Positions 35,872 through 59,987 are shown, counted from the first letter of the stretch. The stretch: DNA of 64,000 bases from Verrucomicrobiales bacterium (GCA_047638715.1 JBLIMK010000006.1:2617-66616), one strand, 5' to 3'. Notes: a model not told the origin generated them from the letters alone. Program-made: numbers and translations.

Positions 35872-35902
35872 AGGAGTCGCAATTACTGCTTCAACTAGCG
35901 GG

Positions 35903-36862
35903 TTATGGCAACTCGCAGTTGAAGACCGTGTCGACACCTGCATCGGTGATGCAGGTGTCATTCGCTTGAGGGCCACCGTTTACGGTGTCTGCGACACCGT
36001 CGTTGGCAATGATGGTGTCATCGCCACCGAAGCCGATCAAGAGATCGGCTCCGAGACCTCCGTCGATGGTGTCGTTACCAAGCTGGAGCACGTTGCCGTC
36101 TCCGAAGATCTGGTCAGCGTCGACGCCACCGGTGATGTTGTCATCGCCAGAACCAGCATTGATGATGTTGAGTCCAGACGGATCGACAATCGTGTCTTGG
36201 TCCTCGTTGCCCCAAATCCGGTCATCTCCGGCGCCGCCATCGATGCTGTCGTTGCCGAATTGTCCGAAGAGGAGGTCATTGCCACCGTTTCCGAAGATGA
36301 TGTCGGCTCCCGTGATGCCGTAGATGATGTCGCCATCAGCACCGCCACTCAGGAAGTCGTCTCCAGGGCCACCATTGATGATGTCCGCACCAGCGTCACC
36401 GTTGATGGTGTCGATGCCGTCGAGGCCGATGATGAGGTCCATACCTGGACCACCAGTGATCGTGTCGTTGCCGCCCTGACCAAAGATGTCGTCATCGCCA
36501 GCACCGCCGTCGATGACGTCACTGTCGGGACCACCGTTGAGGATGTCAGCGCCATCGCCACCGGTGATGTTGTCGGCGCCAGTGCCAGCAACGATCGTGT
36601 CGAGGCCAGGGCCTCCGTGAAGCTCATCGTCGCCCGCAAGGCCGAAGATGGAGTCATCACCAAGACCACCGAAGGCAACGTCGTTGCCTGGGCCTGTGTT
36701 GATGGTGTCGTTGCCACCTTCGCCACAGATGGTGTCGTTGCCCCCGAGGGACACGATCACTTCACCAGCAGAAGTACCGAGGATGACATCGTCACCACCG
36801 GTTGCCTCGTTACCTGGACCAACCGGCAGCGACATATCGAATGTCACGAGCAGGCCATTACA
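35903..36862 (-). repeat. Cys-bracketed RTX module, copy A (inverted with respect to 43033-43980)
   Basis: A 319-codon module from RCNGLLVTF to NCELP. The last ~212 codons align without gaps to the protease tail, at roughly four-fifths identity by manual alignment, and nucleotide similarity is visible. Confidence 0.85.
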
Positions 36863-39800
36863 TCGCACTCCCGTGATGAAATCACCATCGGTGAAGCGCA
36901 GGATCTCGATGTTGCGGAGCGTGTCCATACCATCATCGAGGTTTCCGTCTTGGTTTGCACCGTCTCCACGGGCGTGCTCGACGATAATTCGGTCACCCAC
37001 GAAGGTGACGTCGTAGTCGGTCTGCGGTCCCTGGAAGATGGCGACATCGACGTCGCCGCCTGGGCCTGGATCGACGATTTCACGCACGATCTGGATTTCT
37101 CCGGGATCGAGAGTTCCAGCGAAGATCGCAGCCTGCATATCGAGTGCCGCATCCCAACGAGTACCACCGTTGCTCGGGGTACCACCGGTGATCGCTGGTG
37201 ATGGGTGCCACAGGTAGACATCGAGGAAGACGTCGCCGTCGATGATGTCGTTCTGGCCTCGACCCTCGATGAGGTCGCTGCCTGCTCCGCCGAGGATGAT
37301 GTTGCCGTCCTCGAACAGCGTGGTACCGGCTGGCAGCACATCGACAAGACCATCGAACAGTGCGATAGCAGTGGTGTCGAGCGACTGAAGTCCAAGCGCA
37401 GGAACACCCTGTGAATCATCACCCTTCAACTGATCAGCGCCAGGAGTACCCGAGATACCCTCGACCGCTGCGAAACGATCGTCCTGGAATGGTGGTGGGA
37501 GAAGCAGCGTCTGGTTCAAGTCAGCGCCCTCGGCAAGAATCACCCAGTCGAAGCCCTTCAGGCCTTCGAACCGGTCGATACCAGGGCTTTCCTTGAACAC
37601 ATCGTGTCCACCCTCACCATGCATGCGGTCGTCGCCGCCTTGTCCATCCATAACATCGTTGCCGCCGAAGGCACTGAGTTCGAGTGGGTCGAAGTCGTCA
37701 GCCTGAATATCGGCTGCACCTCCACCACCCTCGATCCAGTCGTCGCCTTCGCCACCGATCAGCACTGCTGCATTGAAGCCGCCGTGCAGGATGTCGTTGC
37801 CAGGTCCTGCGAGGGTCTCGTTGAGATCCGCACCGGAAAGGATGTAGTCAGCGCCGGGTCCACCCTGGAGCAGGTTCTCACCTGGGCCACCAGAGATGGC
37901 ATCGTCGCCAGGACCACCCTTGATGTCATCATCGCCGGACGAGTCCGTAATGATGTCATCGCCGAGGCCGCCGACGATGTTATCGCCACCGCCGCCGCCT
38001 TCGATACGGTCGTCGCCGTCGTTGCCACGAATCGTGTCATCGCCGTCGCCAGACTCGAGGACGTCGTTCGCAGGCGAACCGATCCAGTTGGTGTGCTCGT
38101 CTCCGGCCACACCATCTGCAATGGCTTGTGCGCTGAGAGTGCCTGGACCAAACTTGACGTTTCCGTTTGCCTCGCGGGCAAGAAGGTCCGTCTCGTCGTA
38201 GGTCGTCGCAGGATCATCCACGATCCCCGTGGGGTTCGTCTGTGCGTTCATGTCGAACGTGAAATCTGGACGACTGAACACGTTTGCCGGCAAACCTTCA
38301 GCCGTGGTGTTGCGCTGAGCCAACTCGGACAACGAGTTGCCTTCCATCTGCGCAAGCAAGTTCGTTCCGGCTAGACGCCAGAGGTAGTAGAACCTGTCGC
38401 CGTCCTGAAGGTTCTCCATCTGCGTCTTGAAGATGAAGTCGAACGTGGTACCGAGCATTGCGCCGGTATCAAATTCGAGCTTCTCCGCAAGGCCACCCAT
38501 CCAGAGATCCACGTTGTCGAGGCCACCCTTGTCGCCATCGTATGGCGCAGCAGCGCTGAGGAAGTCGGCGGTGTCTGCAGGAGCGGCAAGGCCGCCATTG
38601 ATCATCGCGTCAGCGAGTGACCGACGTGAGGACATCGTTCCAACACCCGAACCATCATCGAATGTCGCGAGGTCTGCATGCGTGCCATAGGCAGCAATGA
38701 AGTTCACGATCGAGTCAGGGTTCTTGAGCTCGAACCGGAAGTCGGCCCAGTTGTCATACGGAGCAAGGTCCGGACGAAGTCCGTTTGCCCAGAATGTCTC
38801 ACGGACCGTGTTCAAACGCGCAACGCCGTTGTCACGACCACGTGCGATGTTGATCGCAGGAAGGTCGAGCGGAAGACCAAGAAGGTTATTCCGCAGCGCT
38901 TCGGTGATGAACTCGTCAATTTCCTGTCCAACCTGTGTCACGCCACCACGCCAAAGCTGACCAGCAGCTTCTTCGGGAAGGATCGAGGCGCCGAGTGAAT
39001 CCTTGCGGAATTCGATCGGGTTCACGAATGCGTCGATCAGCGTAAGGCTGTTGTCGGTGCCATCAGCCTCGAATCGAACGACGTTCTCGTTGAGCATCGA
39101 ATGACCAAAGCGGTACACGGCGTGTGCAAACTCAGCGGAGATCACTGAATTGATCGTCGTGTCGTAGTTGACAAACGCGTGAACCTGCGGGCTGATCGTT
39201 CGAGCGAATTCCTCGAACGCCAAGTGCTGATATTCCATTTCGGTGACAAACTTCGCCGCCTGGAACAGACGTTCACCATTTCCAAATTCGCCAGCAAGTC
39301 GTGCACCGGTGAATTCAGAATCGAGTCCCGCTGCTGTAGCGACGGCAAGGATGTCGTCCACCAAACGGTTGTGCTCAGCATGGAACACGTGGTGAATCGA
39401 AGTCAGGACGAGGTTCTCGTTTGCACGGCCGTCACCAGCAATGAAGTGAGCGCCAAGCATCTCATCGTCGTAGGTGCAGGGATCGCCATCGTCTCCGAAG
39501 AGGCCTTCCGCACCAAGATCGAGGTCAGCGGTCTGTGCGACCTCTGGTGTGCCTGGGTTCATGTCAGCATCGCAAGTACCTGGGTTTGCGTGATGCGCAA
39601 TGTCAAGCACGAAGCCATGACCTGTACGCATTGCATCAACAGGAATAGCGATACCTCCGCCAGCGGTGTTGCCCTCGACGAGACCGCCGGGGGTAACAAT
39701 CTGTGGAAGACCACGAAGCGGTCCAGGAATGAAGTTGCCGTACACGTCGGTCGCGAGGAGCGGCACGTCGTGCAGGTCATGATCTTCAAGCGTGATGCCA

Positions 39801-40873
39801 AGAACGGTGCTGGATTGTGCTTGCACGTTGTCCCAGTTCGACATACCGCCGTCAGCGTGCTCGAGCAAGAAGCCCGTCGACACTGGCAATGGACCAGCGG
39901 TGTAGTCGCGCACGAACACCTGATGTGAAGGATGCGACGTGTAGGTCTGGTTCTGGTCGACGTAAGGAGTCGTCTTGTTCAGCGGATCAGTTCCGTCTTG
40001 TCCACGGCTCAGAACCATGAAGTTGGTTTGACCACCCGGGACGAACAGAGGATCGTCCGCATTTAGCGGCATGTAGATCGGAGCACCGTTCTTCGTCGTG
40101 AGGTCGAGACCGTGATCGAAGAACTGACCGAAGTACGTCAACATGTCGTTGAACGGAGCCGAAAGTCCGCCATCGGGTGCGGAGTTTTCGATGTTGATGA
40201 GGCCACCTGGATGCACGGTGATGCCATCTGGCAGCAGTGCGGGGACTCCACCGGGATGACCAGCGACAACCGGGTTGCCCGTCGTCTGATCGGAGATCAA
40301 GTTACTGATCGTTCGAGGCGTGCTGTCCTGCACCCATAGACCAGCGCCGGGGTTGGCGTATGTGGTCAGCGCACCATTTACATTCGGTGGCGGTGGAGGG
40401 AATGGAAGAGCGAGCACTTCGGCATCCACAAAGGACGGCGCTATGAGCTCTTCAAATGGTTGATCGGCTGCGCCCCAAGTCTCGTTGCCAACAAACAAGT
40501 TGTTGCAGGTACCGTCGAGTACACGAAGGCCAAGGGGTTGGGTCAAGTCGCCTTGCGGGACCTGGTTTGGACCGTTGCCGATAAGAGTTGCGCATGGATT
40601 TGCGGGCGTCGACGTCTGCACATGCGCTTCTGAAACCCGGATCTGCTGGAGAATAAACTCCACGTCTTGCCCGGTGATGGTGAAGTCCGCACCGATAGGA
40701 GCGGCTGCATCGCCGTTCCCGACGAAGTCGAACCCTTCCCATGGTTGGCGCTCGGTTTGCGCCGATGCCCCCGTCGCGAGCACTGGCACAAATAGTGCCA
40801 ATGCTGCGAGGAGCCCGATGCTTCGCAGCCAATGACGACGAAGCCCTCCACTTGTTGAATTCATAATGTCCAC
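35903..40873 (-). CDS. Secreted animal-type haem peroxidase fused to RTX calcium-binding repeats (peroxicin-like)
   Basis: Signal peptide (LRSIGLLAALALFVPVLATGASA). Peroxidase-cyclooxygenase motifs YFGQFFDHGLD (distal His), GDGRANENLVLTSIHHVFHAEHNRL and AVYRFGHSMLN (proximal His). Two blocks of GGxGxDxxx nonapeptides, ending NDTCITDAGVDTVFNCELP. The ATG at 40864 has the better SD (GGTGGA) than GTG 40873. Confidence 0.92.
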   Translation of the reverse strand: MDIMNSTSGGLRRHWLRSIGLLAALALFVPVLATGASAQTERQPWEGFDFVGNGDAAAPIGADFTITGQDVEFILQQIRVSEAHVQTSTPANPCATLIGNGPNQVPQGDLTQPLGLRVLDGTCNNLFVGNETWGAADQPFEELIAPSFVDAEVLALPFPPPPPNVNGALTTYANPGAGLWVQDSTPRTISNLISDQTTGNPVVAGHPGGVPALLPDGITVHPGGLINIENSAPDGGLSAPFNDMLTYFGQFFDHGLDLTTKNGAPIYMPLNADDPLFVPGGQTNFMVLSRGQDGTDPLNKTTPYVDQNQTYTSHPSHQVFVRDYTAGPLPVSTGFLLEHADGGMSNWDNVQAQSSTVLGITLEDHDLHDVPLLATDVYGNFIPGPLRGLPQIVTPGGLVEGNTAGGGIAIPVDAMRTGHGFVLDIAHHANPGTCDADMNPGTPEVAQTADLDLGAEGLFGDDGDPCTYDDEMLGAHFIAGDGRANENLVLTSIHHVFHAEHNRLVDDILAVATAAGLDSEFTGARLAGEFGNGERLFQAAKFVTEMEYQHLAFEEFARTISPQVHAFVNYDTTINSVISAEFAHAVYRFGHSMLNENVVRFEADGTDNSLTLIDAFVNPIEFRKDSLGASILPEEAAGQLWRGGVTQVGQEIDEFITEALRNNLLGLPLDLPAINIARGRDNGVARLNTVRETFWANGLRPDLAPYDNWADFRFELKNPDSIVNFIAAYGTHADLATFDDGSGVGTMSSRRSLADAMINGGLAAPADTADFLSAAAPYDGDKGGLDNVDLWMGGLAEKLEFDTGAMLGTTFDFIFKTQMENLQDGDRFYYLWRLAGTNLLAQMEGNSLSELAQRNTTAEGLPANVFSRPDFTFDMNAQTNPTGIVDDPATTYDETDLLAREANGNVKFGPGTLSAQAIADGVAGDEHTNWIGSPANDVLESGDGDDTIRGNDGDDRIEGGGGGDNIVGGLGDDIITDSSGDDDIKGGPGDDAISGGPGENLLQGGPGADYILSGADLNETLAGPGNDILHGGFNAAVLIGGEGDDWIEGGGGAADIQADDFDPLELSAFGGNDVMDGQGGDDRMHGEGGHDVFKESPGIDRFEGLKGFDWVILAEGADLNQTLLLPPPFQDDRFAAVEGISGTPGADQLKGDDSQGVPALGLQSLDTTAIALFDGLVDVLPAGTTLFEDGNIILGGAGSDLIEGRGQNDIIDGDVFLDVYLWHPSPAITGGTPSNGGTRWDAALDMQAAIFAGTLDPGEIQIVREIVDPGPGGDVDVAIFQGPQTDYDVTFVGDRIIVEHARGDGANQDGNLDDGMDTLRNIEILRFTDGDFITGVRCNGLLVTFDMSLPVGPGNEATGGDDVILGTSAGEVIVSLGGNDTICGEGGNDTINTGPGNDVAFGGLGDDSIFGLAGDDELHGGPGLDTIVAGTGADNITGGDGADILNGGPDSDVIDGGAGDDDIFGQGGNDTITGGPGMDLIIGLDGIDTINGDAGADIINGGPGDDFLSGGADGDIIYGITGADIIFGNGGNDLLFGQFGNDSIDGGAGDDRIWGNEDQDTIVDPSGLNIINAGSGDDNITGGVDADQIFGDGNVLQLGNDTIDGGLGADLLIGFGGDDTIIANDGVADTVNGGPQANDTCITDAGVDTVFNCELP

Positions 40874-40994
40874 CCGCTTGCTTGGATTGCCCTCGATGAT
40901 TTACCAAGAGTCCGAAGCGCAGAAGAATCCCGCTGGCGTACACAAAGACAGGTGTGCTGTCCATTGCGTTCGCCCGCGGATGCCCTCAGCACCT

Positions 40995-41092
40995 ACTAAA
41001 ACAAGAATGTAGAACGTATTCCCACCATACGTCAATTTAAAATAACTAAAGGCCACCGTGCGCGCTACCGATACTAAATCTTCACTAAATCT
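40995..41092. promoter_or_regulatory. AT-rich divergent control region with four ACTAAA hexamers
   Basis: ACTAAA occurs at 40995, 41045, 41073 and 41084. The last two are ACTAAATCT direct repeats offset by 11 bp. This is the lowest-GC stretch of the peroxidase/protease intergenic region. Confidence 0.4.
41008..41016. promoter_or_regulatory. TGTAGAACG box (copy 1 of 3)
   Basis: The same GTAGAACG octamer recurs at 48199 and 50713, each time upstream of an RTX-enzyme transcription unit. Confidence 0.35.
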
Positions 41093-41107
41093 GCGCTCTC
41101 TGTGAGA

Positions 41108-41115
41108 TCACGTGA
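41108..41115. promoter_or_regulatory. Perfect palindrome TCACGTGA
   Basis: 8-bp palindrome about 80 nt upstream of the protease start codon. Confidence 0.25.
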
Positions 41116-41196
41116 CAATCGGGTCATTCGAACCCCTTTCGCCACTGATCGTTGCACGTCTACCCTTAAAGCACACGAAGGGTGAGGTGTTGGGAT

Positions 41197-43980
41197 ATGA
41201 CGGTGTTGTGGTGGTCTAAGCGTGTGAGTTTCGCGTTGTTGCTCGCGCTCGCAGTAATGCTGGTCGCGCACGGACCGGCATCCTCGGAAGAAGCCGACGC
41301 AGCACTCCTCATCGATGGCACCGTGGTTCTTCCCGACGCGTCGCAAGCCAACGTCGATGGAGTGCAATTGTCTGCCGCTCTCAGCGAGCAACTCGCCGTG
41401 AGTGACCATGTTCGATTCGTCGATGTCGATGTCGACGTCGTGCGACGCGAGCTCGAATTTGGCGTCCTCGCCATCCAAGTTGCGCCAGATGCTGCAATTC
41501 AGGTCAAGACCGTATTCGGTGAAGACCTCGTGCAGGGCGCGACAACATGGACAGCCGAAGGCGCTGATGGTTCGGCGCTTGCGCTGGTCACTCGGGGTCG
41601 AGCGCTCACCGGTGAACTACGGCTCGGTGAACGCCAGTGGGGAATCGCACAAGTCGATGGATCGCTGCACGTGGTCTTTGAACACTCGCCAACAGGACAA
41701 GACCCGGCAGCCGAGCGCTTGCAAGAGGACGGACAGCCCACCCTCGTCCTGGCACCGCTCCCCGACGGTGTTGCACGGTTCACAGAGGACATCACCCACG
41801 CAGAGGACATCTTGGCTATTGGAGCGCGGGAACCCGATGCACCCACTGCAGAAGCACTGCCCGGCCAAACTCAGGCAGATGCACCAGCCGTCGCTGCGAT
41901 GGTCGCAACGTCCGTGATCGATGTGATGGTCGTCTACGACAACACGGCGCTCGCCTTACATGGATCGAATGCCGCCATCGAAAACCTGATCATCGCGAAT
42001 ATCGCCTCGTCCAACGCCACGCTCGCCACATCGGGTGTTGCGACCTCAGTCAACCTGGTCCACATAGGACACATCGCCTACACAGGGTCGGGAAGCTCGT
42101 CCAACGATCTCACTCGACTTCGGAACAAATACGACGGCCACATGGACAGCATTCACGTAACCCGCGACGCGGTGGACGCAGACCTTGTGACCCTCGTGAG
42201 CGAACTCATCGACGGGTTCTGCGGTCGGGCAAATCTGCTTCAGGAACTCCCAAACCAAAATACCGACGATGAAGCCTTCGGTGTAGTTGGAGCTGGGTGT
42301 CTCACAAGCAGCACATACATCCACGAGATCGGCCACAACATGGGGGCCGCTCACGACGATGCGAACCTCGGCGGTTTCACCGGGGTGCAACCGCACTCGC
42401 GAGGATGGGTAGACGTAGCCAACAACTTCGTAACCGTGATGTCGTACGCGAACGGCGCAAACGGCTGCTCGGGTTGCACGACCATCAGCCAGTTCTCGAG
42501 CGATACCGAATTGTTCGCTGGGTTCGCCACGGGTGATGCCGACCATGCGAATGCATCGACGCTCAATGCAACGAGCAGTGGTATTGCTGCCTACCGACCG
42601 GACCCCTGTCCGAACCCGATAAACGACGACTACCCAGTTCGCATCGACCTCGGATCCTCGAGTCTCGTGTCCACTCCCGGAACCAACGTGTGCGCCTCGA
42701 TCGAAGACCTCGAGACCTACTTCATCGGTGATGAGCCCGTGGAGTCGGTTTGGTACGAGTGGACTGCACCATTCGCCGGGACGGCCCGATTCAGTACGTG
42801 CGACGCGTCCACCACCTTCGACACCACCATCACAATATTCGACGACCACGAGTTCTTCTCTGCGCTGTCCGTCGTTGCCCACAACGACGATGCTGGAGCG
42901 GCGTGCACCATAGACCCCACCCACAGCGAGGCACTGACGACGGTCACCAATGGCCAGGTCCTTCGCTTCAAAATCGATGGCGATGCGGCGGCGACGGGAA
43001 CGTTCGCGTTGACGGTTACTGTCGACACGACGTGCAACGGCCAAGCGGCGACCGTCTACGTCGACCGTGGAGACGTCGCGACATCGGGCGACGATGTGAT
43101 CATCGGGACTGTGAACGCCGACGCCATTAACGCCCTAGACGGGAACGACATCGTCTGTGGAATGGCAGGCGACGACGTCATCAACTCGGGCCCGGGCGAC
43201 GACCAAGTGTTCGGCGGCGATGGCAACGACACCATCTTCGGTGTAGCCGGCAACGACACCCTCAACGGCGACGCTGGCCAGGACACGTTGTTGGGTTTCG
43301 CCGGCAACGACACCCTCAATGGTGGCGATGACAACGATCTCATCAATGGTGGTCCTGACAATGACGTGCTCGACGGCGGCGCAGGCGACGACAGCATCTT
43401 TGGTCAGGGCGGTAACGACACGATCAGCGGTGGTCCGGGTATGGACCTCATGATTGGTCTCGACGGCATCGACACCATGAACGGTGATGCTGGTGCGGAC
43501 ATCATCAACGGTGGTTCCGGAGACGACTTCTTGAGTGGCGGTGCCGATGGCGACACCATCTTTGGCATCACTGGCAATGACATGATCACTGGCGACGGAG
43601 GTGCTGACTTCCTGTTCGGACAAGTTGGAAACGACACCATCGATGGTGGTGCCGGAGCAGACAACATCTGGGGCAACGAAAACGACGACATCATCACCGA
43701 TCCGTCAGGTGCCAACATCATCAATGGTGGTGCCGGCAATGACAACATCACCGGTGGCGTCGATAACGATCAGATCTTCGGTGACGGCAATGTCGGCCAG
43801 CTCGGTGATGACATCATCGACGGAGGTCTTGGACCCGACCTGTTGCTCGGCTTCGGTGGCGATGACACCATCACTGCCAATGACGGTTTCGCAGACACCG
43901 TGAACGGTGGCCCGACCTTGAACGACACCTGCCTGGTGGATGCGGTCGTCGACACCGTCTTCAACTGCGAGTTGCCCTAA
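41197..43980 (+). CDS. Secreted reprolysin/ADAM-type zinc metalloprotease fused to RTX calcium-binding repeats
   Basis: Signal peptide (MTVLWWSKRVSFALLLALAVMLVAHG). Metzincin motif HEIGHNMGAAHD. A pre-peptidase-C-terminal-like beta domain, then a 315-codon RTX module ending NDTCLVDAVVDTVFNCELP. SD AAGGGTGAGG lies upstream. Confidence 0.9.
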   Translation: MTVLWWSKRVSFALLLALAVMLVAHGPASSEEADAALLIDGTVVLPDASQANVDGVQLSAALSEQLAVSDHVRFVDVDVDVVRRELEFGVLAIQVAPDAAIQVKTVFGEDLVQGATTWTAEGADGSALALVTRGRALTGELRLGERQWGIAQVDGSLHVVFEHSPTGQDPAAERLQEDGQPTLVLAPLPDGVARFTEDITHAEDILAIGAREPDAPTAEALPGQTQADAPAVAAMVATSVIDVMVVYDNTALALHGSNAAIENLIIANIASSNATLATSGVATSVNLVHIGHIAYTGSGSSSNDLTRLRNKYDGHMDSIHVTRDAVDADLVTLVSELIDGFCGRANLLQELPNQNTDDEAFGVVGAGCLTSSTYIHEIGHNMGAAHDDANLGGFTGVQPHSRGWVDVANNFVTVMSYANGANGCSGCTTISQFSSDTELFAGFATGDADHANASTLNATSSGIAAYRPDPCPNPINDDYPVRIDLGSSSLVSTPGTNVCASIEDLETYFIGDEPVESVWYEWTAPFAGTARFSTCDASTTFDTTITIFDDHEFFSALSVVAHNDDAGAACTIDPTHSEALTTVTNGQVLRFKIDGDAAATGTFALTVTVDTTCNGQAATVYVDRGDVATSGDDVIIGTVNADAINALDGNDIVCGMAGDDVINSGPGDDQVFGGDGNDTIFGVAGNDTLNGDAGQDTLLGFAGNDTLNGGDDNDLINGGPDNDVLDGGAGDDSIFGQGGNDTISGGPGMDLMIGLDGIDTMNGDAGADIINGGSGDDFLSGGADGDTIFGITGNDMITGDGGADFLFGQVGNDTIDGGAGADNIWGNENDDIITDPSGANIINGGAGNDNITGGVDNDQIFGDGNVGQLGDDIIDGGLGPDLLLGFGGDDTITANDGFADTVNGGPTLNDTCLVDAVVDTVFNCELP
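43033..43980 (+). repeat. Cys-bracketed RTX module, copy B (inverted with respect to 35903-36862)
   Basis: Runs from TCNGQAATVYV to NCELP. See copy A. Confidence 0.85.
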
Positions 43981-43988
43981 CGCGCTCG

Positions 43989-46034
43989 CTAGCCCTCACA
44001 GGCAATACGGGCTACGACCGACGTACACCTATCGCTTCCAGGTCCGCCCCAGGCAAAGTTGGTGCCCGCGCCGCCGCGCAAGTTGTCGTCACCCTGCCCG
44101 CCGTACAGTTCATCGTTTCCGCCATAGCCGAACAAGCGGTCGCGACGGTCGCCTCCGTAGAGCGTGTCGTTTCCGCCATTCCCGACGAGGCGATCTCCCC
44201 CACGGCCACCACGAAGAAGGTCGTTGCCTCCGCCTCCCTCGACATCGTCGAGACCAGGGCCAGCGAGTACGAGGTCGTCCCCGTCACCGGCGCGCACAAC
44301 ATCGGAACCCCAGCCGGCATTGATGATGTCGGCCCCGGACCCACCATTGATTCGATCTGCGCCGCCACGCCCACAGATGATGTCGTTGCCGCCCAATCCG
44401 TCGATGATGTCCGGACCGCCCGTGCCGACGATGACATCGTCACCGTTCGTACCGATGAGGCCGGTCGTCGTTGCGAGCCGACCCTGGCAGGATTCGGTCG
44501 GCGGCAGTGAGTTCGTTACGAGATAGATGAAGCCGTTGCGTTTGCTCGAAATGTAGAGCTCGCCGTCCGGCCCCTGCCCAAACCGTGCATCGGCTCGCCC
44601 CGACCCGTCGTAGGTCGCTGCATCGTTGAACACATCCTGCAGACTCGTGCGAGGCAACGCAGCGGTAGTGGGATCACCATCGTGGTCGAAGGTGATCGCG
44701 ACTCGACCGGTAGGCGCCTGTGTGAGGTCTCCGGGAGCATCGCGAGCCGGATCGTCTGGATCGAGCAGTGTCACCGCGGCGGCCATCTCCTCGAGCGTCG
44801 AGTGAAAGAGCTTTCCCGTCTTCGGGAAGTCGCTGTAGAAGTACTGCCCGGACAACGCCGAACCATTGTCTACGACGTACCCGCCAGCGATTGCTTGCCC
44901 CGAGAGCCCCGAACCTCGCGTTCCCTCGTGACCGTACTGTGCTGCCGGGTACGTGTAGCCGTTCGCGGCCTCGTCGGCCGGGAGCGGTGCAATCCCGTTG
45001 AGCAGGTCGCCGGTCGGGAGGTGAACAAAGGTTCCTTCACGCTCCGACCAGCCGTAGTTGGCCCCGCCCACGATGACGTTTACTTCTTCGACGTTGTCCC
45101 GTCCCGCCTCCGCAGCGATCAGATGGACCGCACCGCCGTCATCTCGAGCGAACGCCAGGTGATGTGGATTCCGATGGCCGAGCGACCACACCTCATCCAG
45201 CATCACCGGGTCACCGATGAACGGGTTGTCCTCGGGCACCAGATAGGGATCGAGGCCCGACCGCCGCGGATCGATGCGCAGGATCTTGCCGAGCGCGTCG
45301 TTCTTCTGACCACCGCCAGCCGTTGCTGACTGCACGCTTCCATCGCCGTGAGCAACGTACAGGTTCCCGAAGTCATCATCGCCTGGCTCGGCAAATGGAT
45401 TGAAGGCGATCTGCTTGATCGGATGGTCGTATACCGGCATGCCAACGCGAAAAACCTGGCGATAACTCGAAGGATCGATTTGGCCCGTGTTCAGATCCAT
45501 CGTCCACTCGATGAGCACACCGTCGGCGACGATCGGGTTGGCTGCATCGCTCAGATAGTCATCGGGATCCGGGGACGTGGGTCGCCGTTCCATCACCGAT
45601 GTGTACAGCAGGCCGTTCGCCGCGAACCGCGGATGAAACGCGACCGATCGAAGGCCCCCATGGAAGATGCTCGTGTTGTCCAGACGACGTCCGGTTGCAG
45701 CCAACATCGCGATCTTCACATCGAAGAAAACCGATGCGGTTGCGGTGCGCCCAGATTTCGATATCTCGTAGATCTTGCCGTCATAGTCCTCGACGACGAA
45801 GAACCGATCACCAGATGTAGCGAACTGGTTGAGGCGAGGACGACCGAGCGCCGAATTCGGGATCTGTACGTACGGAGATAACTCGACGACGACCCCTCGA
45901 TCGACGATCGGTAGTAAGACCGGGTTGTCCGCCGACGCATGCGTCACCGTCGCGCCGACGAGCGCTACTGACAGACACGCAGCCCCCGCAGCGGAGGCCC
46001 ATCGTTTCGTACGAGGTCTCTTGCTGAGGTCCAT
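43989..46034 (-). CDS. Secreted PQQ-dependent sugar (glucose/sorbosone) dehydrogenase beta-propeller fused to RTX repeats
   Basis: Signal peptide (…LVGATVTHASA). SGDH motifs HGGLRSVAFHP, LGKILRIDP, SLGHRNPHHLAF and GANYGWSEREG. RTX tail entered via CQGRLATTTG…GDDVIVGT…GNDIICG and ending GSDRCTSVVARIACEG. Confidence 0.88.
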   Translation of the reverse strand: MDLSKRPRTKRWASAAGAACLSVALVGATVTHASADNPVLLPIVDRGVVVELSPYVQIPNSALGRPRLNQFATSGDRFFVVEDYDGKIYEISKSGRTATASVFFDVKIAMLAATGRRLDNTSIFHGGLRSVAFHPRFAANGLLYTSVMERRPTSPDPDDYLSDAANPIVADGVLIEWTMDLNTGQIDPSSYRQVFRVGMPVYDHPIKQIAFNPFAEPGDDDFGNLYVAHGDGSVQSATAGGGQKNDALGKILRIDPRRSGLDPYLVPEDNPFIGDPVMLDEVWSLGHRNPHHLAFARDDGGAVHLIAAEAGRDNVEEVNVIVGGANYGWSEREGTFVHLPTGDLLNGIAPLPADEAANGYTYPAAQYGHEGTRGSGLSGQAIAGGYVVDNGSALSGQYFYSDFPKTGKLFHSTLEEMAAAVTLLDPDDPARDAPGDLTQAPTGRVAITFDHDGDPTTAALPRTSLQDVFNDAATYDGSGRADARFGQGPDGELYISSKRNGFIYLVTNSLPPTESCQGRLATTTGLIGTNGDDVIVGTGGPDIIDGLGGNDIICGRGGADRINGGSGADIINAGWGSDVVRAGDGDDLVLAGPGLDDVEGGGGNDLLRGGRGGDRLVGNGGNDTLYGGDRRDRLFGYGGNDELYGGQGDDNLRGGAGTNFAWGGPGSDRCTSVVARIACEG

Positions 46035-46053
46035 CCACTACGACCGTAGCGTG

Positions 46054-48126
46054 TCAAAAACGTCGCTCGCAGCTCACTTTTTGCCCGCCAGCACAGAAAT
46101 CCTTCATCGGCCCGCCATCGAGGCGGTCGATGCCGAGTCCACCACGAATGTGATCGACACCATTGCCGCCGCCGATCTGATCTCGGCCGCTATTCCCGAA
46201 CAACCAATCCCAACCCTCGCCGCCGGTGATGACATCGTTTCCGGCGCCACCGCGGATCCGGTCGGCATCTGGGCCGCCACGAATCTCATCGTTTCCGGCG
46301 CCTGCATAGATCTGGTCGCGACCAGCGCCACCGAGGATGATGTCGTTTCCTTGGAGTCCACAGATGAGGTCGTCGCCAGCGAGGGCGTCGATGAAGTTTG
46401 CCGTCGACGTGCCAATGATGACGTCGTCACCGTTGGTCGGCAGCTGCCCTTTCGCGAAGTCGACCGTCACGGGGATACCAGCGCACGTGCGAGAACCAGG
46501 GCTTGTGTTCGGCGCTGCTGCGAGTGCTGCGAGCAGGCCAGCCTTCGTCTGCTCCTTACACGCCGCGCTTCCCTTCACAATCTGAACACGGCGATCGATG
46601 CCAGGAACAGTGCACGTTGAATACGAACCATCGGGCCACCGGATCTCGACCGGCGCAACTTCTGTGCTTGGACCCAGGCCAACGTGCAACGTACGGCCAT
46701 CTTGAGATCGGTGATATCGGTGTCCGGTCTCGCGGACTTGCCAATCGCTGGCACCGACGAAGAGCTGTGCGCCCATGGCGTCAGGGTTCGAGCCGACGAG
46801 GTCGATCTCGAGCCAGTGATTTCCAGAGCCCTTCTTATTCGTCAAGACGTGATCGACCGCTCGATCGAAGTCGTAGCCGTTGCCGATGATCGCATCCATC
46901 CAGCCATCGGCATTGATGTCGGCAACCACGATGGCGCCAGCGGTTTGCGCTGGCGCTGTTGCTGTTGTAGCCGGCAACACTCCGGTGCCGCCGTCGGAGA
47001 AGTTGCCTTCGCCGTCGTTCAGCAGCAAGACATTTCGGAGCTGACCCTCTTGTCTCTGGGTGCAGCCAGCGAGAATGTCGAGGTCGCCATCGTTGTCGAA
47101 GTCGGCCGCCGCACCTGAGCGGCAATTGTCGAGATCCGCGCTCATGGGAAGCGATACGGTGCGCCCGTTCCCCGCCGCGGTTACTTCATGTGCCGTGACA
47201 GGCCAGTTCCCGGCACTGTTGGACTCGCTTCCATTGAAGACGATGAACTCGGGGTGAAGGTCGCCGTCGAAGTCACCGACGAGCACCTCGCGAATGGGCA
47301 AGGTTTCGTCTCTGCGCTGAATAGCTGGATTCGAGGGTTCGGCCATGGAACCGCCACCGACCGCCATCGAGTCCTTTGCGAGGGTGAACACGTCGTGCGT
47401 CACGATGATGTTGGAAGTGGCTGGCCCGGTCGAGGTCAGCTGGGCGATTCGGACGTGGGCATCGGTAATGATCTGTCCGGGGTCGGGAACCTTGGACCAT
47501 GTGGTTCCGTCGCCGTTGTTGAGGTAGACCTCACTCGGCTTGAGCTGTCGTTCACCTTGTGGCACGGGGTCCGAACGCAGGTCGAGGTTCGTGATGAGCA
47601 CGTCCATGTCGCCATCGTTGTCGTAATCGAAGAACAGCGGCTGCCGGCCGCGGCCGAAGATGTCCTTGAGTGCGCCGGCGTCGACGAACTGAAGCGTGCC
47701 ACCGTCGTTGCGAAACAAACGATTGTTGTTGTTGCGACCCGAGACCTCCAAGAGGTCTTCATCGCCGTCGCCGTCGATGTCGGAGAATGCAACGCCATGG
47801 GTGTCGGGGCCCTGGTCTTCTGGATCGCCAGATTGAAACGCAGTTCTCGTGCTGGTCCCCGAGGAGAGGTCGATGATGGCTTCGGACATGCTGCCGTGGT
47901 TGTTGTTCCACACGTCGACACCCGGACCGCCGAGATCCTCGGTAATGCCCAGACCCCAGGCCGGCGAATCGTTGAACCCGATACCGGACGGAAGGTCGCT
48001 CACCGCGAAACCCTGCCAACCCGCGGCGTCGGCCGAGTCTCCGCTGGTGACGGGGACGGCAATAGCTGCGGCAAACACCGCGATAACCACCCATACCCGA
48101 CCGGCTTTGGTCGTCCTAGTCAACAT
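46054..48126 (-). CDS. Secreted CRTAC1-like protein A (FG-GAP/VCBS repeats + ASPIC/UnbV domain + short RTX tail)
   Basis: Signal peptide. Repeated DxDxDGDxD FG-GAP calcium sites (DIDGDGDEDL, DYDNDGDMDV, DFDNDGDLDI). UnbV_ASPIC-like NHWLEIDLVGSNPDAMGAQLFV…RETGHRYHRSQDGRTLHVGLG. RTX tail ending DGGPMKDFCAGGQKVSCERRF. Confidence 0.85.
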   Translation of the reverse strand: MLTRTTKAGRVWVVIAVFAAAIAVPVTSGDSADAAGWQGFAVSDLPSGIGFNDSPAWGLGITEDLGGPGVDVWNNNHGSMSEAIIDLSSGTSTRTAFQSGDPEDQGPDTHGVAFSDIDGDGDEDLLEVSGRNNNNRLFRNDGGTLQFVDAGALKDIFGRGRQPLFFDYDNDGDMDVLITNLDLRSDPVPQGERQLKPSEVYLNNGDGTTWSKVPDPGQIITDAHVRIAQLTSTGPATSNIIVTHDVFTLAKDSMAVGGGSMAEPSNPAIQRRDETLPIREVLVGDFDGDLHPEFIVFNGSESNSAGNWPVTAHEVTAAGNGRTVSLPMSADLDNCRSGAAADFDNDGDLDILAGCTQRQEGQLRNVLLLNDGEGNFSDGGTGVLPATTATAPAQTAGAIVVADINADGWMDAIIGNGYDFDRAVDHVLTNKKGSGNHWLEIDLVGSNPDAMGAQLFVGASDWQVRETGHRYHRSQDGRTLHVGLGPSTEVAPVEIRWPDGSYSTCTVPGIDRRVQIVKGSAACKEQTKAGLLAALAAAPNTSPGSRTCAGIPVTVDFAKGQLPTNGDDVIIGTSTANFIDALAGDDLICGLQGNDIILGGAGRDQIYAGAGNDEIRGGPDADRIRGGAGNDVITGGEGWDWLFGNSGRDQIGGGNGVDHIRGGLGIDRLDGGPMKDFCAGGQKVSCERRF

Positions 48127-48198
48127 TACAATTCCTCGCCATTCGCGTCAGCGAAGTTCGGGTACGCCTCGAGCTTCGAAACACGCACTGAGCCGAGA

Positions 48199-48206
48199 GT
48201 AGAACG
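48199..48206. promoter_or_regulatory. GTAGAACG box (copy 2 of 3)
   Basis: Located 73 nt upstream of start codon 48126, downstream of the terminator hairpin. Confidence 0.35.
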
Positions 48207-48260
48207 AAACATCACATTTTGTCACTGCCAAATGGCCCAAGTCACCCAAGAAAACAGCAA

Positions 48261-48289
48261 AGCGCCGGCCACAAGACGTGACCGGCGCT
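48261..48289 (-). terminator. Intrinsic terminator of CRTAC1-like gene B
   Basis: 12-bp stem with 1 mismatch, AGCGCCGGCCAC-AAGAC-GTGACCGGCGCT. Followed on the minus strand by TTGCTGTTTTCTT. A second small hairpin CGCCCC-CGCC-GGGGCG lies at 48304-48319. Confidence 0.65.
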
Positions 48290-48335
48290 GCTCACTCACT
48301 TCACGCCCCCGCCGGGGCGAACTACACAAAGTTGG

Positions 48336-50699
48336 TTAGAGGCCAAAGACCCCGGTTTCGCAGTTCACACGAGTCTCGATCACTCCACCCGGATCGGTCA
48401 ACGTGCAACCGTCGAACTGGGGCCCACCGTCCATTGTGTCGATCCAGGCACCGCCGCGAAGAACGTCGTCGCCCTCCTCGCCGAACAACTGATCACGACC
48501 CAAGTTGCCAAACAGTTCATCGGCAAACTTCCCGCCACGCAGGACGTCATTGCCGTTACCACCAGCAATTCGATCCTTGCCATTGCCGCCGCTCATGGTG
48601 TCGACACCATCGCCACCCTGGATACGGTCGTTGCCGTTATCACCGTTGATGGTGTCGTTGCCTGAGCCACCCACGAGTCGGTCATTTCCAGTTCCACCGT
48701 TGATGATGTCATTACCGAGGCCCGCAAAGATCTTGTCGAACCCGTCACCACCATTGATGGTGTCGTCACCCTGCAACGAACAGATCGTGTCGTTGCCAGC
48801 AAGGCCGTTGATGACATCGTTGCCCGAAGTGCCACGAATGATGTCGTCGCCCGCGGTAGGCGCCTCACCCTTGGACAGATCGACCGTGACCTCGAGATTG
48901 TTGCAAATCAGTGGTGGAACGAGTGGCGAGGTGTCAGGTATTCCGTCCACCGCAGCCATCAGCCCAGACTTGGTCTGGGAAACACAATCGTTGCTTCCCT
49001 GGGTGACCGTGATCGTCTGGTTGATGCCCGCCACAGCGCAACGCTCGAATGTGCCGTCTGGCCACATGATCTCAAGCGGAGCGATAGCGGTCTGGTCGGC
49101 GAGGCCGAAGTGCAGCGACTTCATGTCCTGTCCACGATGCACCCGGTGACCAGTCTCTCGGACCTGCCACTTGTCGGTACCAGCGAACACCTGAGCGCCC
49201 ATGACGTCAGGGTTCGAACCAACGAGGTCGACCTTGAGCCAGTTGTTGACGCCACCGTCGTTCAAGAAGATGAAATCTTCGCCGGCTTGGCTGTCATAAC
49301 CGCCACCCACGTAGGTGTCGATCCAACCGTCGTCATTGAAGTCGGCGGTAATCGCAACGGTGGCGGTCCCGAGTGCTGCAGTGGCAGGCACGAGTGACGC
49401 AGTACCGATGGTGAAGTTGCCCGCTCCGTCGTTGAGCAAGATGACGTTCTGGGTCTGGCCGCTCTCTACCATCGTGCAGCCGCCGAAGATGTCGATGTCG
49501 GCGTCGTTGTCGTAGTCGGCGAGCGCCACGGTGCGGCAGTTGTCGACACGATCATCATTGGGAAGGATGTCGACTACGGCTTCCGAGACCAACGAACTTG
49601 TCGAGACCTGACCAATACCGAGGGGAAGTTCACCCTCGAGATCGGGGACACCATCACCAATGGGGTCGCCAGGTTGCGGTTCTCCCTCAGCGGGTGGATC
49701 CTCTCCCTCTCCGGGCTCCGGCACAGTTGCGCCGACATCGTCGGTCGCTAGGAAGTCGTCCTGACGGGCCACAATCCATTCCGGCATGAGGTCGCCGTCG
49801 AGGTCGCCGAGTGCGATGTCACGCATGTTGCTTGCGTTGTCGTCAACACCCAACGTCTGATTCACGGGGTTCGCCGAAGCGATCAGCGTTGCTGAACCGG
49901 TCTGCACCGTGTCGATCGCGAAAGAGAAAGAGTTTGACGTAACGATGACCGGGGTTTCACCAGGACCGGTGGTGGTGAGGTGCGCGTAACGCACACTTTC
50001 GTCGGTGATGACCGTGGTCGGGTCAGCGACCTTCGTCCATGACGTTCCATCGCCGTCATTGAGGAAGAGCTCGGAAGGACGAAGGATCGTAGGATCGTTT
50101 TCATCCATGCCGTCAGGGGTCAAGAACTGGCGATCGAGGTTGACGATGAGCGCGTCCATGTCGCCGTCGTCGTCGATATCGACCATCAAGACCGTGCGAC
50201 CCCGGCCGAGGTTGTCCTCGAGCCCGTGGCCTGTGATGGCTCCGAGGTCTCCGATATTTGCGGGATCGTTGATAAAGACGCGGGTGTCGTGCGCGCGACC
50301 GGACGTCTCGACGAGGTCGTCGTCGCCATCGCCGTCGATGTCGGAGAATGCAGCGCCATGGCTGTCGAAGCCACCAGCAGCCTGGATGGCATCAGCGAAC
50401 ACGCCGGCCGTTGGTTCCCAGTCGACCAGCCATTCCGACTTCTCGGCGTGGTTGCTGACAAAAAGATCGGTGCCGGGGCCGCCGAGATCGTTTGTCGTGG
50501 CTGCGGTGAACGCAGGGCTGTTGTTCGTCCCGTCTGGGTTTGCCGAGGCGAGACCAGATGGGACCGAGGTTGCCGAGAACCCGTTCCATATTCCGACCGC
50601 ACCGGCCTGTGTCGTAGATATGGGTGCAGCGACAGTCGCTGCCACCAGAGCCATACCCAAAAAAGCATGTTTCAACTTGCGTCGCATAAATAACCCCAA
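48336..50699 (-). CDS. Secreted CRTAC1-like protein B (FG-GAP/VCBS + ASPIC/UnbV + RTX tail)
   Basis: Paralogue of 46054..48126, with the same architecture (DIDGDGDDDL, DIDDDGDMDA, DYDNDADIDI; NNWLKVDLVGSNPDVMGAQVFA…RETGHRVHRGQDMKSLHFGLA). Has an extra Pro/Glu-rich insert. The tail ends DGGPQFDGCTLTDPGGVIETRVNCETGVFGL. Confidence 0.85.
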   Translation of the reverse strand: MGLFMRRKLKHAFLGMALVAATVAAPISTTQAGAVGIWNGFSATSVPSGLASANPDGTNNSPAFTAATTNDLGGPGTDLFVSNHAEKSEWLVDWEPTAGVFADAIQAAGGFDSHGAAFSDIDGDGDDDLVETSGRAHDTRVFINDPANIGDLGAITGHGLEDNLGRGRTVLMVDIDDDGDMDALIVNLDRQFLTPDGMDENDPTILRPSELFLNDGDGTSWTKVADPTTVITDESVRYAHLTTTGPGETPVIVTSNSFSFAIDTVQTGSATLIASANPVNQTLGVDDNASNMRDIALGDLDGDLMPEWIVARQDDFLATDDVGATVPEPGEGEDPPAEGEPQPGDPIGDGVPDLEGELPLGIGQVSTSSLVSEAVVDILPNDDRVDNCRTVALADYDNDADIDIFGGCTMVESGQTQNVILLNDGAGNFTIGTASLVPATAALGTATVAITADFNDDGWIDTYVGGGYDSQAGEDFIFLNDGGVNNWLKVDLVGSNPDVMGAQVFAGTDKWQVRETGHRVHRGQDMKSLHFGLADQTAIAPLEIMWPDGTFERCAVAGINQTITVTQGSNDCVSQTKSGLMAAVDGIPDTSPLVPPLICNNLEVTVDLSKGEAPTAGDDIIRGTSGNDVINGLAGNDTICSLQGDDTINGGDGFDKIFAGLGNDIINGGTGNDRLVGGSGNDTINGDNGNDRIQGGDGVDTMSGGNGKDRIAGGNGNDVLRGGKFADELFGNLGRDQLFGEEGDDVLRGGAWIDTMDGGPQFDGCTLTDPGGVIETRVNCETGVFGL

Positions 50700-50951: not shown

Positions 50952-52259
50952 ATGAAAAGCCTGCTCACCAAGCTTCGAGCGATGGACCGCCAACAATTCG
51001 AGACGCTGTTCACGAGTTCGGCGTTTCTCGTCACGAACGGTCTGCTCTTCGTCAATATGTTCTTGTTGGCCACGGCCCTTGGCGACGATGGCCGTGGCGC
51101 GGTTGCCGCGGCGTACGGAAATACCGTGGTAATCGGTTGGGCTTTTCAAATCGGCGTTCCCGCAGCCGCCGGCTATTTCGCTAAGGACGTCGACAACCGA
51201 CGGGTGGCGATGTCGGCGTGGACAATGATGGTGATGGGAGCTATTCCGGTTGCGCTCCTGATGATTCCTTTCTATCTCTGGCAGCTCGGCGGCAAATCGT
51301 TCACCGAGGGCGGCGAATCGCTGCAGCGCTGGTACTTGGCCTTCATCGTCCTGCAGCTCTTCAACGGACCGTTCCTCTCCGCGATCTTCTGGCTCCGAGG
51401 AATCGGCAATACCGTTCGATTCAATGCCCTGCTCGCGTTGCCACAGGTGCTCATCACGTTTGGCTACCTGGTGCTGTTCATCAGCGGCAAGATGACCGTG
51501 AACTCAGCGCTGACGTCGACCTTCATCATGTTGAGCATCGGCTGGATCGTGGGACTGACCGCCACAAAGTCGTGGCCTGGCCGCGGTTTCTCGAAAGGCA
51601 CCTTCACCGAGATTCGCCAATACGGCCTGCGGGCCTGGGTCGGCAACCTCTCGTTCTTCGTCAGCCTCCGAATTGACCAACTTCTTCTCGTGAATTTTGT
51701 CGACCTGTCCGAGCTCGGCGTGTACGCGGTTGCGGCCGCCATCTCGACGCTGTCTGGCCCGATCGCGCGCGGCGCAGCTCAAGCCGTGCTTCCCTTCGTT
51801 CGAAACGCCAAGAGCGACGACGAACGGATCTCGCGTATCACCGCATCGCTTCGTCACGTAAGCATGCTGTCGTTCTCGATCCTCGGAGCCATGGCGCTGA
51901 CGGCATGGTGGATCATTCCCTTCGTGCTCGGCGACAACTTCGGTGCATCCGTGCGACCACTCATGATCCTTCTCCCAGGTGCGTGGGCGACCGATGTCAA
52001 CCAGGTGCTCACGACAGCGCTCTCGTCCTTCAACCGACCCGAGGAAGCGTCGAAGGCCCAGGTCGCGTCGGCCATCGCTACCGCGATTGGCCTCATCACC
52101 CTCCTTTCCCCTTACGGAATCGTCGGTGCCGCCATCACGACGACCGTGTCTTATTGGGTCGGTCTCATCGTTAGCTACTATTACTGGCGGCGACTTCTTG
52201 GTCAGGTCCACCGCGGTGAAGCGACCGGCCATACCCAGCAGATCGAAGAACCTGCCTGA
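50952..52259 (+). CDS. Polysaccharide flippase (Wzx, MOP superfamily), second copy
   Basis: About 12 TM segments across 435 aa. It is the first gene of the plus-strand polysaccharide operon. Confidence 0.75.
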   Translation: MKSLLTKLRAMDRQQFETLFTSSAFLVTNGLLFVNMFLLATALGDDGRGAVAAAYGNTVVIGWAFQIGVPAAAGYFAKDVDNRRVAMSAWTMMVMGAIPVALLMIPFYLWQLGGKSFTEGGESLQRWYLAFIVLQLFNGPFLSAIFWLRGIGNTVRFNALLALPQVLITFGYLVLFISGKMTVNSALTSTFIMLSIGWIVGLTATKSWPGRGFSKGTFTEIRQYGLRAWVGNLSFFVSLRIDQLLLVNFVDLSELGVYAVAAAISTLSGPIARGAAQAVLPFVRNAKSDDERISRITASLRHVSMLSFSILGAMALTAWWIIPFVLGDNFGASVRPLMILLPGAWATDVNQVLTTALSSFNRPEEASKAQVASAIATAIGLITLLSPYGIVGAAITTTVSYWVGLIVSYYYWRRLLGQVHRGEATGHTQQIEEPA

Positions 52260-59985: not shown

Positions 59986-59987
59986 CC

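Follow-up and report, generated by a model that had tools for sequence, protein, structure and literature searches.

A window of 64 kb (the whole stretch of DNA analysed, 64,000 nucleotides; positions are counted from its first letter) was mapped for open reading frames (ORFs) and the proteins encoded in it were scanned against Pfam. Between positions 35903 and 50699 lie five adjacent genes, g1 to g5, each encoding a signal peptide, a passenger domain and a C-terminal RTX tail, and this island is placed between two Wzx/Wzy loci that carry three sulfotransferases and a BNR/sortilin protein. Both statements had been made in an earlier reading of the sequence alone (the sequence-only reading) and were borne out, the first by Pfam and an N-terminus rule and the second by Pfam. 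Comparison with related loci, designated here by L-numbers, showed that the five genes are not conserved as a single unit. The conserved core consists of the CRTAC1 genes and an operon encoding Wzx, a protein resembling polysaccharide co-polymerases (PCP-like), a BNR protein and a GT4, together with a GSDH gene in several loci. The five genes and their tails were located as follows, with E-values for the Pfam matches.

35903-40873, minus strand: g1, haem peroxidase of 1656 aa with internal RTX blocks (An_peroxidase 5.9e-60, HemolysinCabind 8.9e-61)
41182-43980, plus strand: g2, metzincin of 932 aa (Reprolysin_3/4/5 1e-11, RTX 2.9e-43)
43989-46034, minus strand: g3, GSDH-like protein of 681 aa (GSDH 1.9e-23, and RTX)
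46054-48126, minus strand: g4, CRTAC1-family propeller of 690 aa (FG-GAP_3, FG-GAP, UnbV_ASPIC and RTX)
48336-50699, minus strand: g5, second CRTAC1-family paralogue of 787 aa (FG-GAP_3, UnbV_ASPIC and RTX)
~35903-36862, minus strand: g1 tail, 319 aa, four-Cys RTX
~43033-43980, plus strand: g2 tail, 315 aa, four-Cys RTX
~43989-44489, minus strand: g3 tail, 166 aa, four-Cys RTX
~46054-46485, minus strand: g4 tail, 143 aa, four-Cys RTX
~48336-48905, minus strand: g5 tail, 189 aa, four-Cys RTX

HemolysinCabind was matched by all five proteins (E 2e-21 to 9e-61), and the earlier passenger assignments all held in the Pfam profile searches. The peroxidase motifs of g1 are intact (GQFFDH, GDGRANE, HNR, RFGH), covering the distal Gln/Asp/His, the Arg..Glu motif and the proximal His, and the protein aligned over 1350-1500 aa with similar proteins made up of a peroxidase and repeats. 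With these motifs, its Ca2+-binding repeats and a very long ORF, g1 is by its sequence a long peroxicin in the sense of PMC4420034, where long bacterial peroxicins are described within the peroxidase-cyclooxygenase superfamily. Like these it exceeds 1600 aa and fuses a haem peroxidase to Ca2+-binding repeats; unlike them it adds a Sec signal and a four-Cys tail shared with g2 (71% identity), and some of its relatives adjoin type I secretion genes.

The zinc motif HExxHxxGxxHD of g2 was found as HEIGHNMGAAHD at residue 381, and translation probably begins with the ATG at 41197. NCBIfam Mep72 was matched at 3.5e-25, under its cut-off (88.6 vs 645 bits), so that g2, as far as this profile goes, resembles the biofilm-associated metzincin Mep72 and is not an equivalog of it. 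The ADAM label previously given to g2 is supported by the reprolysin match and the zinc motif, but the disintegrin and cysteine-rich domains of the ADAM architecture had no Pfam match in the protein. For g3, a GHRNP sequence aligned with the PQQ (pyrroloquinoline quinone)-binding HRN of soluble glucose dehydrogenase (PDB 1c9u, 1e-10), and the protein is nearer to bacterial sugar dehydrogenases than to HHIP (1e-10 vs 8e-4). The catalytic His is probably in a YDH motif, where the HMMER alignment has a gap.

Both g4 and g5 have the CRTAC1-family architecture, an FG-GAP beta-propeller followed by UnbV_ASPIC (Pfam), and their passengers are 46% identical. An AlphaFold model of g4 (pLDDT 87.4) was disordered at residues 1-33 and confident elsewhere, with a predicted beta-roll at residues 569-684. 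The top Foldseek match by a wide margin was murine CRTAC1 (9etn; E 7.6e-21, target TM-score 0.63), followed by integrin alpha propellers, PL11 rhamnogalacturonan lyases and a fungal lectin, with Vibrio Bap1 at rank 40. The modelled fold appears typical of Ca2+-dependent glycan- or protein-binding propellers. The FG-GAP propeller and UnbV_ASPIC of g4 and g5 are shared with mammalian CRTAC1, but identity is 17%, a C-terminal RTX beta-roll is present and no EGF-like domain was matched by Pfam. The parallel that had been drawn with metazoan matrix proteins therefore amounts to true homology for CRTAC1 (9etn, 7.6e-21) and to likeness at superfamily level only for the rest. More than 85 database clusters share the g4 architecture, often with two members per contig. 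Look-ups by exact sequence for g3 and g4 retrieved no record, and a look-up of the clusters yielded no names. Across 35 homologues four passenger Cys were invariant and three tail Cys nearly invariant, which fits extracellular disulfides.

The five tails are built in the same frame: C1, 38-45 residues, C2 (within an NDxICG motif), a variable number of nonapeptides (C2-C3 spacing of 89-259 residues in the window and related loci), C3, 8-15 residues, and C4-Glu close to the C-terminus. They had been described as the same kind of tail; one four-Cys architecture was indeed found, but among the window tails only those of g1 and g2 are close in sequence. An ending of C-x6-25-C-[DE] was present in 28 of 32 RTX ORFs from the window and eight related loci, compared with 0 of 16 complete RTX ORFs from unrelated loci, and the tail is a lineage-enriched module. 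The repeat core is generic: an HMMER search started from the g4 tail gave 191,649 representative proteins, and each of the best 150 was a giant RTX protein with many repeats. The module is set apart by the Cys frame and by the pairing of this frame with a signal peptide.

RTX tails were found fused to at least ten passenger types, and the passengers of capped tails include peroxidase, metzincin, GSDH, CRTAC1, FG-GAP_2, LTD, CotH and a Pel9A-like beta-helix. RTX repeats also occur in a GDSL lipase, whose gene is truncated where L086 stops, and in a solute-binding protein, whose ORF has another kind of ending; in neither was the cap seen. Within a genome the tails are more alike than the passengers. 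For g4/g5 the passenger and tail identities are 42% and 100% in L088, 50% and 83% in L001, and 50% and 75% in L083, while g1/g2 of the window combine unrelated passengers with tails 71% identical. The tail is thus a module that is shuffled and homogenised. Net charge is about -60, with one basic residue, in the tails of g1 and g2, and -9 to -21, with 12-13 Lys/Arg, in those of g3-g5.

The best named matches of GlpX (class II fructose-bisphosphatase) from the window were Acidimicrobiales/Actinomycetota proteins (86% and 76% identity), and one g4 homologue carries an Acidimicrobiales label. A database protein identical to g4, P0001, is labelled 'MAG: Verrucomicrobiales bacterium'. Since GlpX and the g4-family homologues point to Acidimicrobiales this label is doubtful, and the Verrucomicrobiales bin is probably mislabelled or contaminated. 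Judged from these protein matches, the host is most likely an uncultured, aquatic, Gram-positive member of the Acidimicrobiia, a monoderm actinobacterium. The Acidimicrobiia are monoderms and are abundant in aquatic systems.

A signal peptide was called where 2-5 Lys/Arg were followed by an uncharged, mostly hydrophobic run of 15-21 residues beginning at residue 11-18. All of g1-g5 passed this crude rule and 0 of 19 cytoplasmic-type window proteins did; export of all five is very probable. The 64-kb window was found to contain no genes for type I secretion (ABC/HlyD/TolC). Taken together, a monoderm host, the signal peptides and a window free of ABC/HlyD/TolC genes argue for Sec-exported RTX-repeat proteins, not type I substrates. 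The Gly/Asp-rich nonapeptide repeats of type I RTX proteins are present, but the signal-less N-terminus and C-terminal secretion signal are not, and neither an adjacent ABC exporter/HlyD adaptor nor a Gram-negative host is indicated by the window. RTX genes in six actinobacterial genomes without type I secretion genes were regarded as surprising in a 2010 review of RTX proteins (PMC3034196). Tat export of g1 and g5, for which an N-terminal RR pair was considered, was rejected, the RR not being kept in orthologues; a sortase/exosortase sorting signal was rejected as no hydrophobic helix follows the Cys cap.

Two distant long-peroxicin homologues (L101 6126-9011 and L102 5414-8472) directly adjoin ABC-exporter and HlyD genes, and the L102 peroxicin begins at the mature sequence, without a signal peptide. 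Signal peptides are present on g1 and several other peroxidase homologues, and from this gene context the peroxicin family includes both type I-secreted and Sec-exported versions. If the island proteins were classical RTX toxins or adhesins leaving through a type I system encoded elsewhere in the genome, this would fit the strong HemolysinCabind matches, the two peroxidase homologues beside ABC and HlyD genes and the NCBI label of the g4 protein, Verrucomicrobiales being a diderm group. It is at odds with the N-terminal signal peptides on all five proteins, with the type I-linked L102 homologue, which has no signal and so differs from the window proteins, with a 64-kb window in which type I secretion genes were not found and with the housekeeping protein that puts the contig in the Acidimicrobiia; the Cys-capped C-terminus also differs from known type I secretion signals. 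We regard such a route as having hardly any chance of being correct, and the classical type I RTX reading as effectively excluded.

The polysaccharide genes on either side of the island were located as follows.

50952-52259, plus strand: right Wzx flippase (Polysacc_synt, Polysacc_synt_3), with 53-78% identical orthologues in six loci
52259-53176, plus strand: 305-aa protein in which two terminal transmembrane helices enclose a long helical part, with 45-60% identical orthologues
53224-55545, plus strand: BNR/Sortilin-Vps10-type propeller with a lipoprotein-like signal LIATAC (Sortilin-Vps10 1.9e-23)
55554-56843, plus strand: right GT4 (Pfam), with 69-82% identical orthologues
58744-62410, plus strand: 413-aa protein, sulfotransferase (59988-60899) and Wzy (Pfam), a trio also found in L088, L124 and L125
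25994-35256, minus strand: left locus with a lipoprotein-like 360-aa protein, FkbM, Wzy, Wzx, hexapeptide acyltransferase, two sulfotransferases, GT4 and GT1 (Pfam)
22142-22852, minus strand: Bac_transf initiating sugar transferase (Pfam), with a 59% identical orthologue in L085

On the plus strand the right locus runs in the order Wzx, 305-aa protein, Sortilin/BNR, GT4, three unknowns, sulfotransferase, Wzy and GT2 (Pfam). The best Foldseek matches of the 305-aa protein, obtained with a low-confidence single-sequence model, were Wzc, KpsE and WzzE and were weak (E >= 1e-3); no PDB sequence match was found. Going by this model it is probably a Wzz-like polysaccharide co-polymerase. The BNR protein matched the NCBIfam F510_1955 glycosylhydrolase at 6e-35, under the cut-off, and the GH74-type PDB entries 6p2k/6p2l at 1e-9. 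It appears weakly similar to GH74-type hydrolases, a glycanase kind often found in exopolysaccharide operons. A (P/G)RSG(T/S)T loop for 3'-phosphoadenosine 5'-phosphosulfate is present in all three window sulfotransferases. Both loci and the Bac_transf gene at 22142-22852 together provide the gene set of a Wzx/Wzy pathway, with a putative co-polymerase. The synechan xss genes provide an example of a Wzx/Wzy-dependent pathway with a sulfated product (PMC8205485). By their gene content, the right and left loci probably make sulfated polysaccharide.

The 413-aa protein (58744-59985, plus strand) had no Pfam match; orthologues were found in L088 and L090, and 416-aa proteins occupy its position in L124 and L125. 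It is 27-29% similar to the PCP-like protein of other loci and may be a second co-polymerase. The 360-aa protein of the left locus (25994-27076, minus strand) also had no Pfam match; it carries a linker rich in Ser, Thr and Asp and a signal resembling that of lipoproteins (LLASAC), and a 37% identical counterpart ends the left locus in L123. A spike in AT skew (0.29 at window 28001-30000) lies over the left Wzy/Wzx and, we think, comes from T-rich codons of the minus-strand membrane-protein genes. The Bac_transf gene lies between SufD and SufB, within an Fe-S cluster assembly operon (20402-24584), and this placement is kept in L085 (18762-22322). An Rfam scan of the window gave no match.

Beyond the left locus sits a sixth, small RTX-tail ORF (25221-25955, plus strand; HemolysinCabind 6e-9), which ends in DACIVDLGIDTAVFNCA and is without the C2 Cys. 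Its passenger is 36% identical to L001 21200-21646, and an overlapping upstream ORF (24530-25435, plus strand) contains a signal-peptide-like segment in another frame. The 25221-25955 ORF may be a frameshifted or decaying exoprotein gene.

Eleven distinct places including the window were compared, ten of which were able to test linkage to the right-hand operon; L122/L123 was kept apart, as its fetched part stops inside the g4-like gene. CRTAC1 genes were located divergently beside Wzx in nine of the ten loci (window, L001, L082, L083/84, L085, L088, L090, L124, L125), with two other genes in between in L090. Orthologues of the 305-aa, BNR and GT4 genes come after Wzx, except in L085, where the fetched stretch stops just past Wzx. 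Identities within the core operon were 45-82% for the loci compared by BLAST. Orthologues of g5 are present in all linked loci, and a GSDH-RTX gene follows CRTAC1 in L083, L085, L088, L124 and the window, and also in L123; g3 orthologues in L083, L085, L086, L088 and L123 are 58-74% identical. Further along the right locus, the 413-aa protein, sulfotransferase and Wzy are found in the window, L088, L124 and L125, the L088 sulfotransferase being 81% identical. Beyond the core the genes vary (Metallophos, HTH_67, peptidase M3, other polysaccharide genes), which argues for selection on the adjacency of CRTAC1 and the operon.

As a control, the neighbours of CRTAC1-family genes from other phyla, 25-33% identical and taken from among the matches listed, were examined (38 loci, 148 neighbours). 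No polysaccharide-synthesis family was present within the 25 commonest Pfam families of these neighbours, which were most often TPR proteins, response regulators and ABC transporters. Polysaccharide linkage is therefore not a general property of the CRTAC1 family. A 19-kb island at L086 3901-22508 carries at least seven RTX-tailed genes (LTD, LTD-CotH, CRTAC1, two FG-GAP_2, GSDH and GDSL lipase) as well as PhoD, and lies downstream of a GGDEF/EAL gene. The tail of the GDSL lipase runs off the L086 end, and the complete tails of the island are of one long type, 59-84% identical.

Two elements vary between relatives, the left locus and the peroxidase-metzincin cassette. No left-locus orthologues were found in the fetched parts of L001, L082, L083, L085, L086, L088 and L090, and neither peroxidase nor metzincin was found in the fetched parts of related loci other than L123. 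The L122/L123 contig carries a metzincin orthologue (P0247, 64% identical) and, divergent from it in L123, a g1 orthologue (67% identical). Left-locus orthologues in L123 range from 37 to 72% identity (Wzy 53%, Wzx 52%, sulfotransferase 65%, GT4 72%, GT1 46%), and then come a g3 orthologue (74%) and the g4-like gene. Relative to the window the cassette and left locus have traded places and are still together; the intergenic gaps around g1 and g2 show no DNA similarity to L123. Linkage to polysaccharide genes in relatives, as anticipated by the sequence-only reading, was thus found for CRTAC1 and the right operon in nine of ten loci, with a GSDH-RTX gene in six of these nine when the window is counted, but for the peroxidase, metzincin and left locus in L123 only.

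The distance between SufB and g3 is 4.3 kb in L085 vs ~19 kb in the window, which identifies the left locus and cassette as a replaceable segment at a fixed site. Relatives carry a Pel9A-like beta-helix, a solute-binding protein and an FG-GAP_2 protein in place of the variable RTX genes. The best other peroxidase homologues, from JGI metagenomes, are 40-51% identical and without the Cys cap; their neighbours gave no BLAST match to the polysaccharide proteins of the window, these being the only proteins used in that comparison.

Within the island g1 and g2 are a divergent pair, g2 being on the opposite strand to g1, g3, g4 and g5. The gap from g4 to g3 is 19 bp and the two are probably co-transcribed. 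Gene order and spacing point to g1, g2 and g5 as probable single-gene transcription units and to g4-g3 as a probable joint one. The gap between g5 and the right-hand Wzx, which is divergent from it, is 252 bp. A scan for consensus promoters gave a background level of matches. The following DNA features were located.

48261-48289, minus strand: terminator-like hairpin with a 13-bp stem and T-run between g5 and g4 (consensus match only)
35897-36750, no strand assigned: left arm of an inverted repeat in g1 tail DNA, 854 nt, 78% complementary, ungapped
43133-43986, no strand assigned: right arm in g2 tail DNA, pairing with 35897-36750

The 854-nt inverted repeat brackets the entire divergent g1/g2 cassette and might promote its inversion or movement.

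From the domains, export signals, linkage, tail architecture and tail homogenisation described above, the reading we prefer is a joint role at the cell surface for the conserved polysaccharide operon and for the propeller and dehydrogenase proteins encoded divergently from it, which would be Sec-exported and stabilised by Ca2+, with the tail as a stability module and the cassette and second locus as strain-specific additions. We consider this to have about an even chance of being right. The proteins would be exported by Sec through cleavable signal peptides; outside the cell the tail would bind Ca2+ and fold, and terminal disulfides would lock the folded tail. The resulting stable extracellular proteins could then attach to, or alter, the glycan layer that the adjacent genes produce. 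Between SufB and g3, the cassette of peroxidase and metzincin and the second sulfotransferase locus are a strain-variable addition, and within each genome the tail module is shuffled between exoprotein genes and homogenised. Several points weigh against this reading. The signal-peptide call was made with a simple heuristic, not a trained predictor, and sulfation of the polymer is predicted from the presence of sulfotransferase genes. The divergent Wzx-CRTAC1 promoter regions of 8 loci gave no common motif beyond those of shuffled sequences, and we know of no biochemical activity for the CRTAC1 family. The linked loci may be one family-level clade, in which inherited synteny is not fully separable from selection; SufB of the window and L085 is 92% identical. 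Linkage is broken in L086/L087, where CRTAC1-RTX and GSDH-RTX lie inside a large RTX-exoprotein island, and no polysaccharide genes were found within 10 kb of the L086 island.

The genes could instead be co-located without being coupled, in a flexible surface island whose tailed proteins are general exoenzymes for scavenging or defence and whose tail is a Ca2+ folding and stability module. The left locus and accessory RTX genes do vary among relatives, as does the spacing between SufB and g3 (4.3 kb in L085 vs ~19 kb); the L086 island mixes tailed LTD, CotH and GDSL-lipase proteins with PhoD, and peroxidase homologues elsewhere are not linked to window-like polysaccharide genes. Yet the CRTAC1 pair and the Wzx/PCP-like/BNR/GT4 genes are adjacent in nine of ten loci despite rearranged surroundings, and the g1/g2 cassette stays beside the left locus in a second genome despite the changed order. 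We judge such uncoupled co-location rather unlikely. A stronger form of coupling was proposed in the sequence-only reading, with all five proteins and both loci as one matrix system in which the Ca2+-loaded RTX tail docks on sulfated polysaccharide. The conserved core linkage remains of this single system, but the five genes are not one unit and L086 is unlinked. Docking would account for one tail on at least ten unrelated passengers and for within-genome homogenisation, both of which fit a common binding partner, and for the interleaving of tail genes with polysaccharide genes in the window, L001, L083 and L123. By a rough estimate the short g3-g5 tails (12-13 Lys/Arg) become net positive once Ca2+-loaded, whereas the long g1/g2 tails (about -60, one basic residue) would not be cationic even then. 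Seven tail-bearing genes in L086 have no polysaccharide gene within 10 kb, and the tails could have become alike through gene conversion between repeats, with no common ligand. SLH (with csaB) and CWB2 (with PSII) are wall-binding modules encoded beside ligand-synthesis genes. By analogy, the four-Cys beta-roll could be an address module of the Acidimicrobiia group that docks exchangeable Sec-exported proteins, in a Ca2+-dependent manner, on the sulfated wall or capsule polysaccharide made by adjacent loci, with gene conversion matching the tails to their own polymer. Secreted Rhizobium proteins that bind exopolysaccharide Ca2+-dependently (PMC9298526) speak in favour of docking of this kind. 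The full matrix system appears improbable to us, and the address module is likewise given a small chance.

The statement that no such unit had been described was too strong, as comparable systems are found in Vibrio, Rhizobium, Azotobacter (AlgE) and Actinoplanes (wps-1). The rbm genes of Vibrio, which we take to lie between the two vps clusters, resemble the present arrangement, in which genes for secreted matrix or processing proteins stand between two Wzx/Wzy-type polysaccharide clusters. Bap1 and RbmC are Ca2+-binding FG-GAP-type propellers, and the beta-helix lyase-like protein of L083 is comparable to RbmB. Orthology was not seen (Bap1 rank 40), however, and the Vibrio system is that of a diderm, is without RTX tails or sulfotransferases and is experimentally proven. 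In Azotobacter the AlgE mannuronan C-5 epimerases carry RTX beta-rolls on extracellular enzymes acting on an anionic polysaccharide, and the AlgE R-modules bind alginate or contribute to polymer binding. The tail repeats matched R-modules in the PDB (2ml1, 2ml2, 2agm; E ~1e-4 to 1e-3). AlgE is type I secreted, without Cys caps or signal peptide, and the likeness is limited to the repeats.

In Rhizobium leguminosarum, Rap lectins and Ply glycanases bind and trim their own acidic exopolysaccharide in a Ca2+-dependent manner, and the secretome described there includes RTX proteins and an RTX Zn-metalloprotease, as at the present locus (PMC9298526); unlike here, export is by the PrsDE type I system of a diderm, and the binding domains are cadherin-like, not beta-rolls. 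The wps-1 cluster of Actinoplanes missouriensis encodes Wzx/Wzy/Wzz, two sulfotransferases, a methyltransferase and a glycoside hydrolase, and is proposed to make a sulfated sporangium-matrix polysaccharide (PMC13390465). It is likened to the window by gene content; no adjacent RTX-tailed exoproteins are mentioned in the part of that report consulted, and the organism belongs to the class Actinomycetes, not the Acidimicrobiia. What is new at the present locus is a combination: a monoderm host, Sec export, Cys-capped genome-homogenised tails, and the CRTAC1 family as a conserved partner of a probable sulfated-polysaccharide operon.

Few of the Acidimicrobiia have been cultured, and next to nothing is known of their cell surface. 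The locus ties a probable sulfated polysaccharide to a defined set of exported proteins in a testable way, and the bacterial CRTAC1 family gains a conserved genomic partner. RTX beta-rolls are here used as a shuffled, genome-homogenised C-terminal module, and the Sec signals offer an explanation for actinobacterial RTX genes without a type I system (PMC3034196). If the tail proves not to be an anchor, the locus nevertheless offers a well-defined monoderm example of exoproteins stabilised by Ca2+. If the tail does anchor proteins to the polymer, this would be a new principle of surface display, a beta-roll counterpart of SLH and CWB2, and docking by such an address module would assign a first role to the CRTAC1 family, which is widespread in bacteria.

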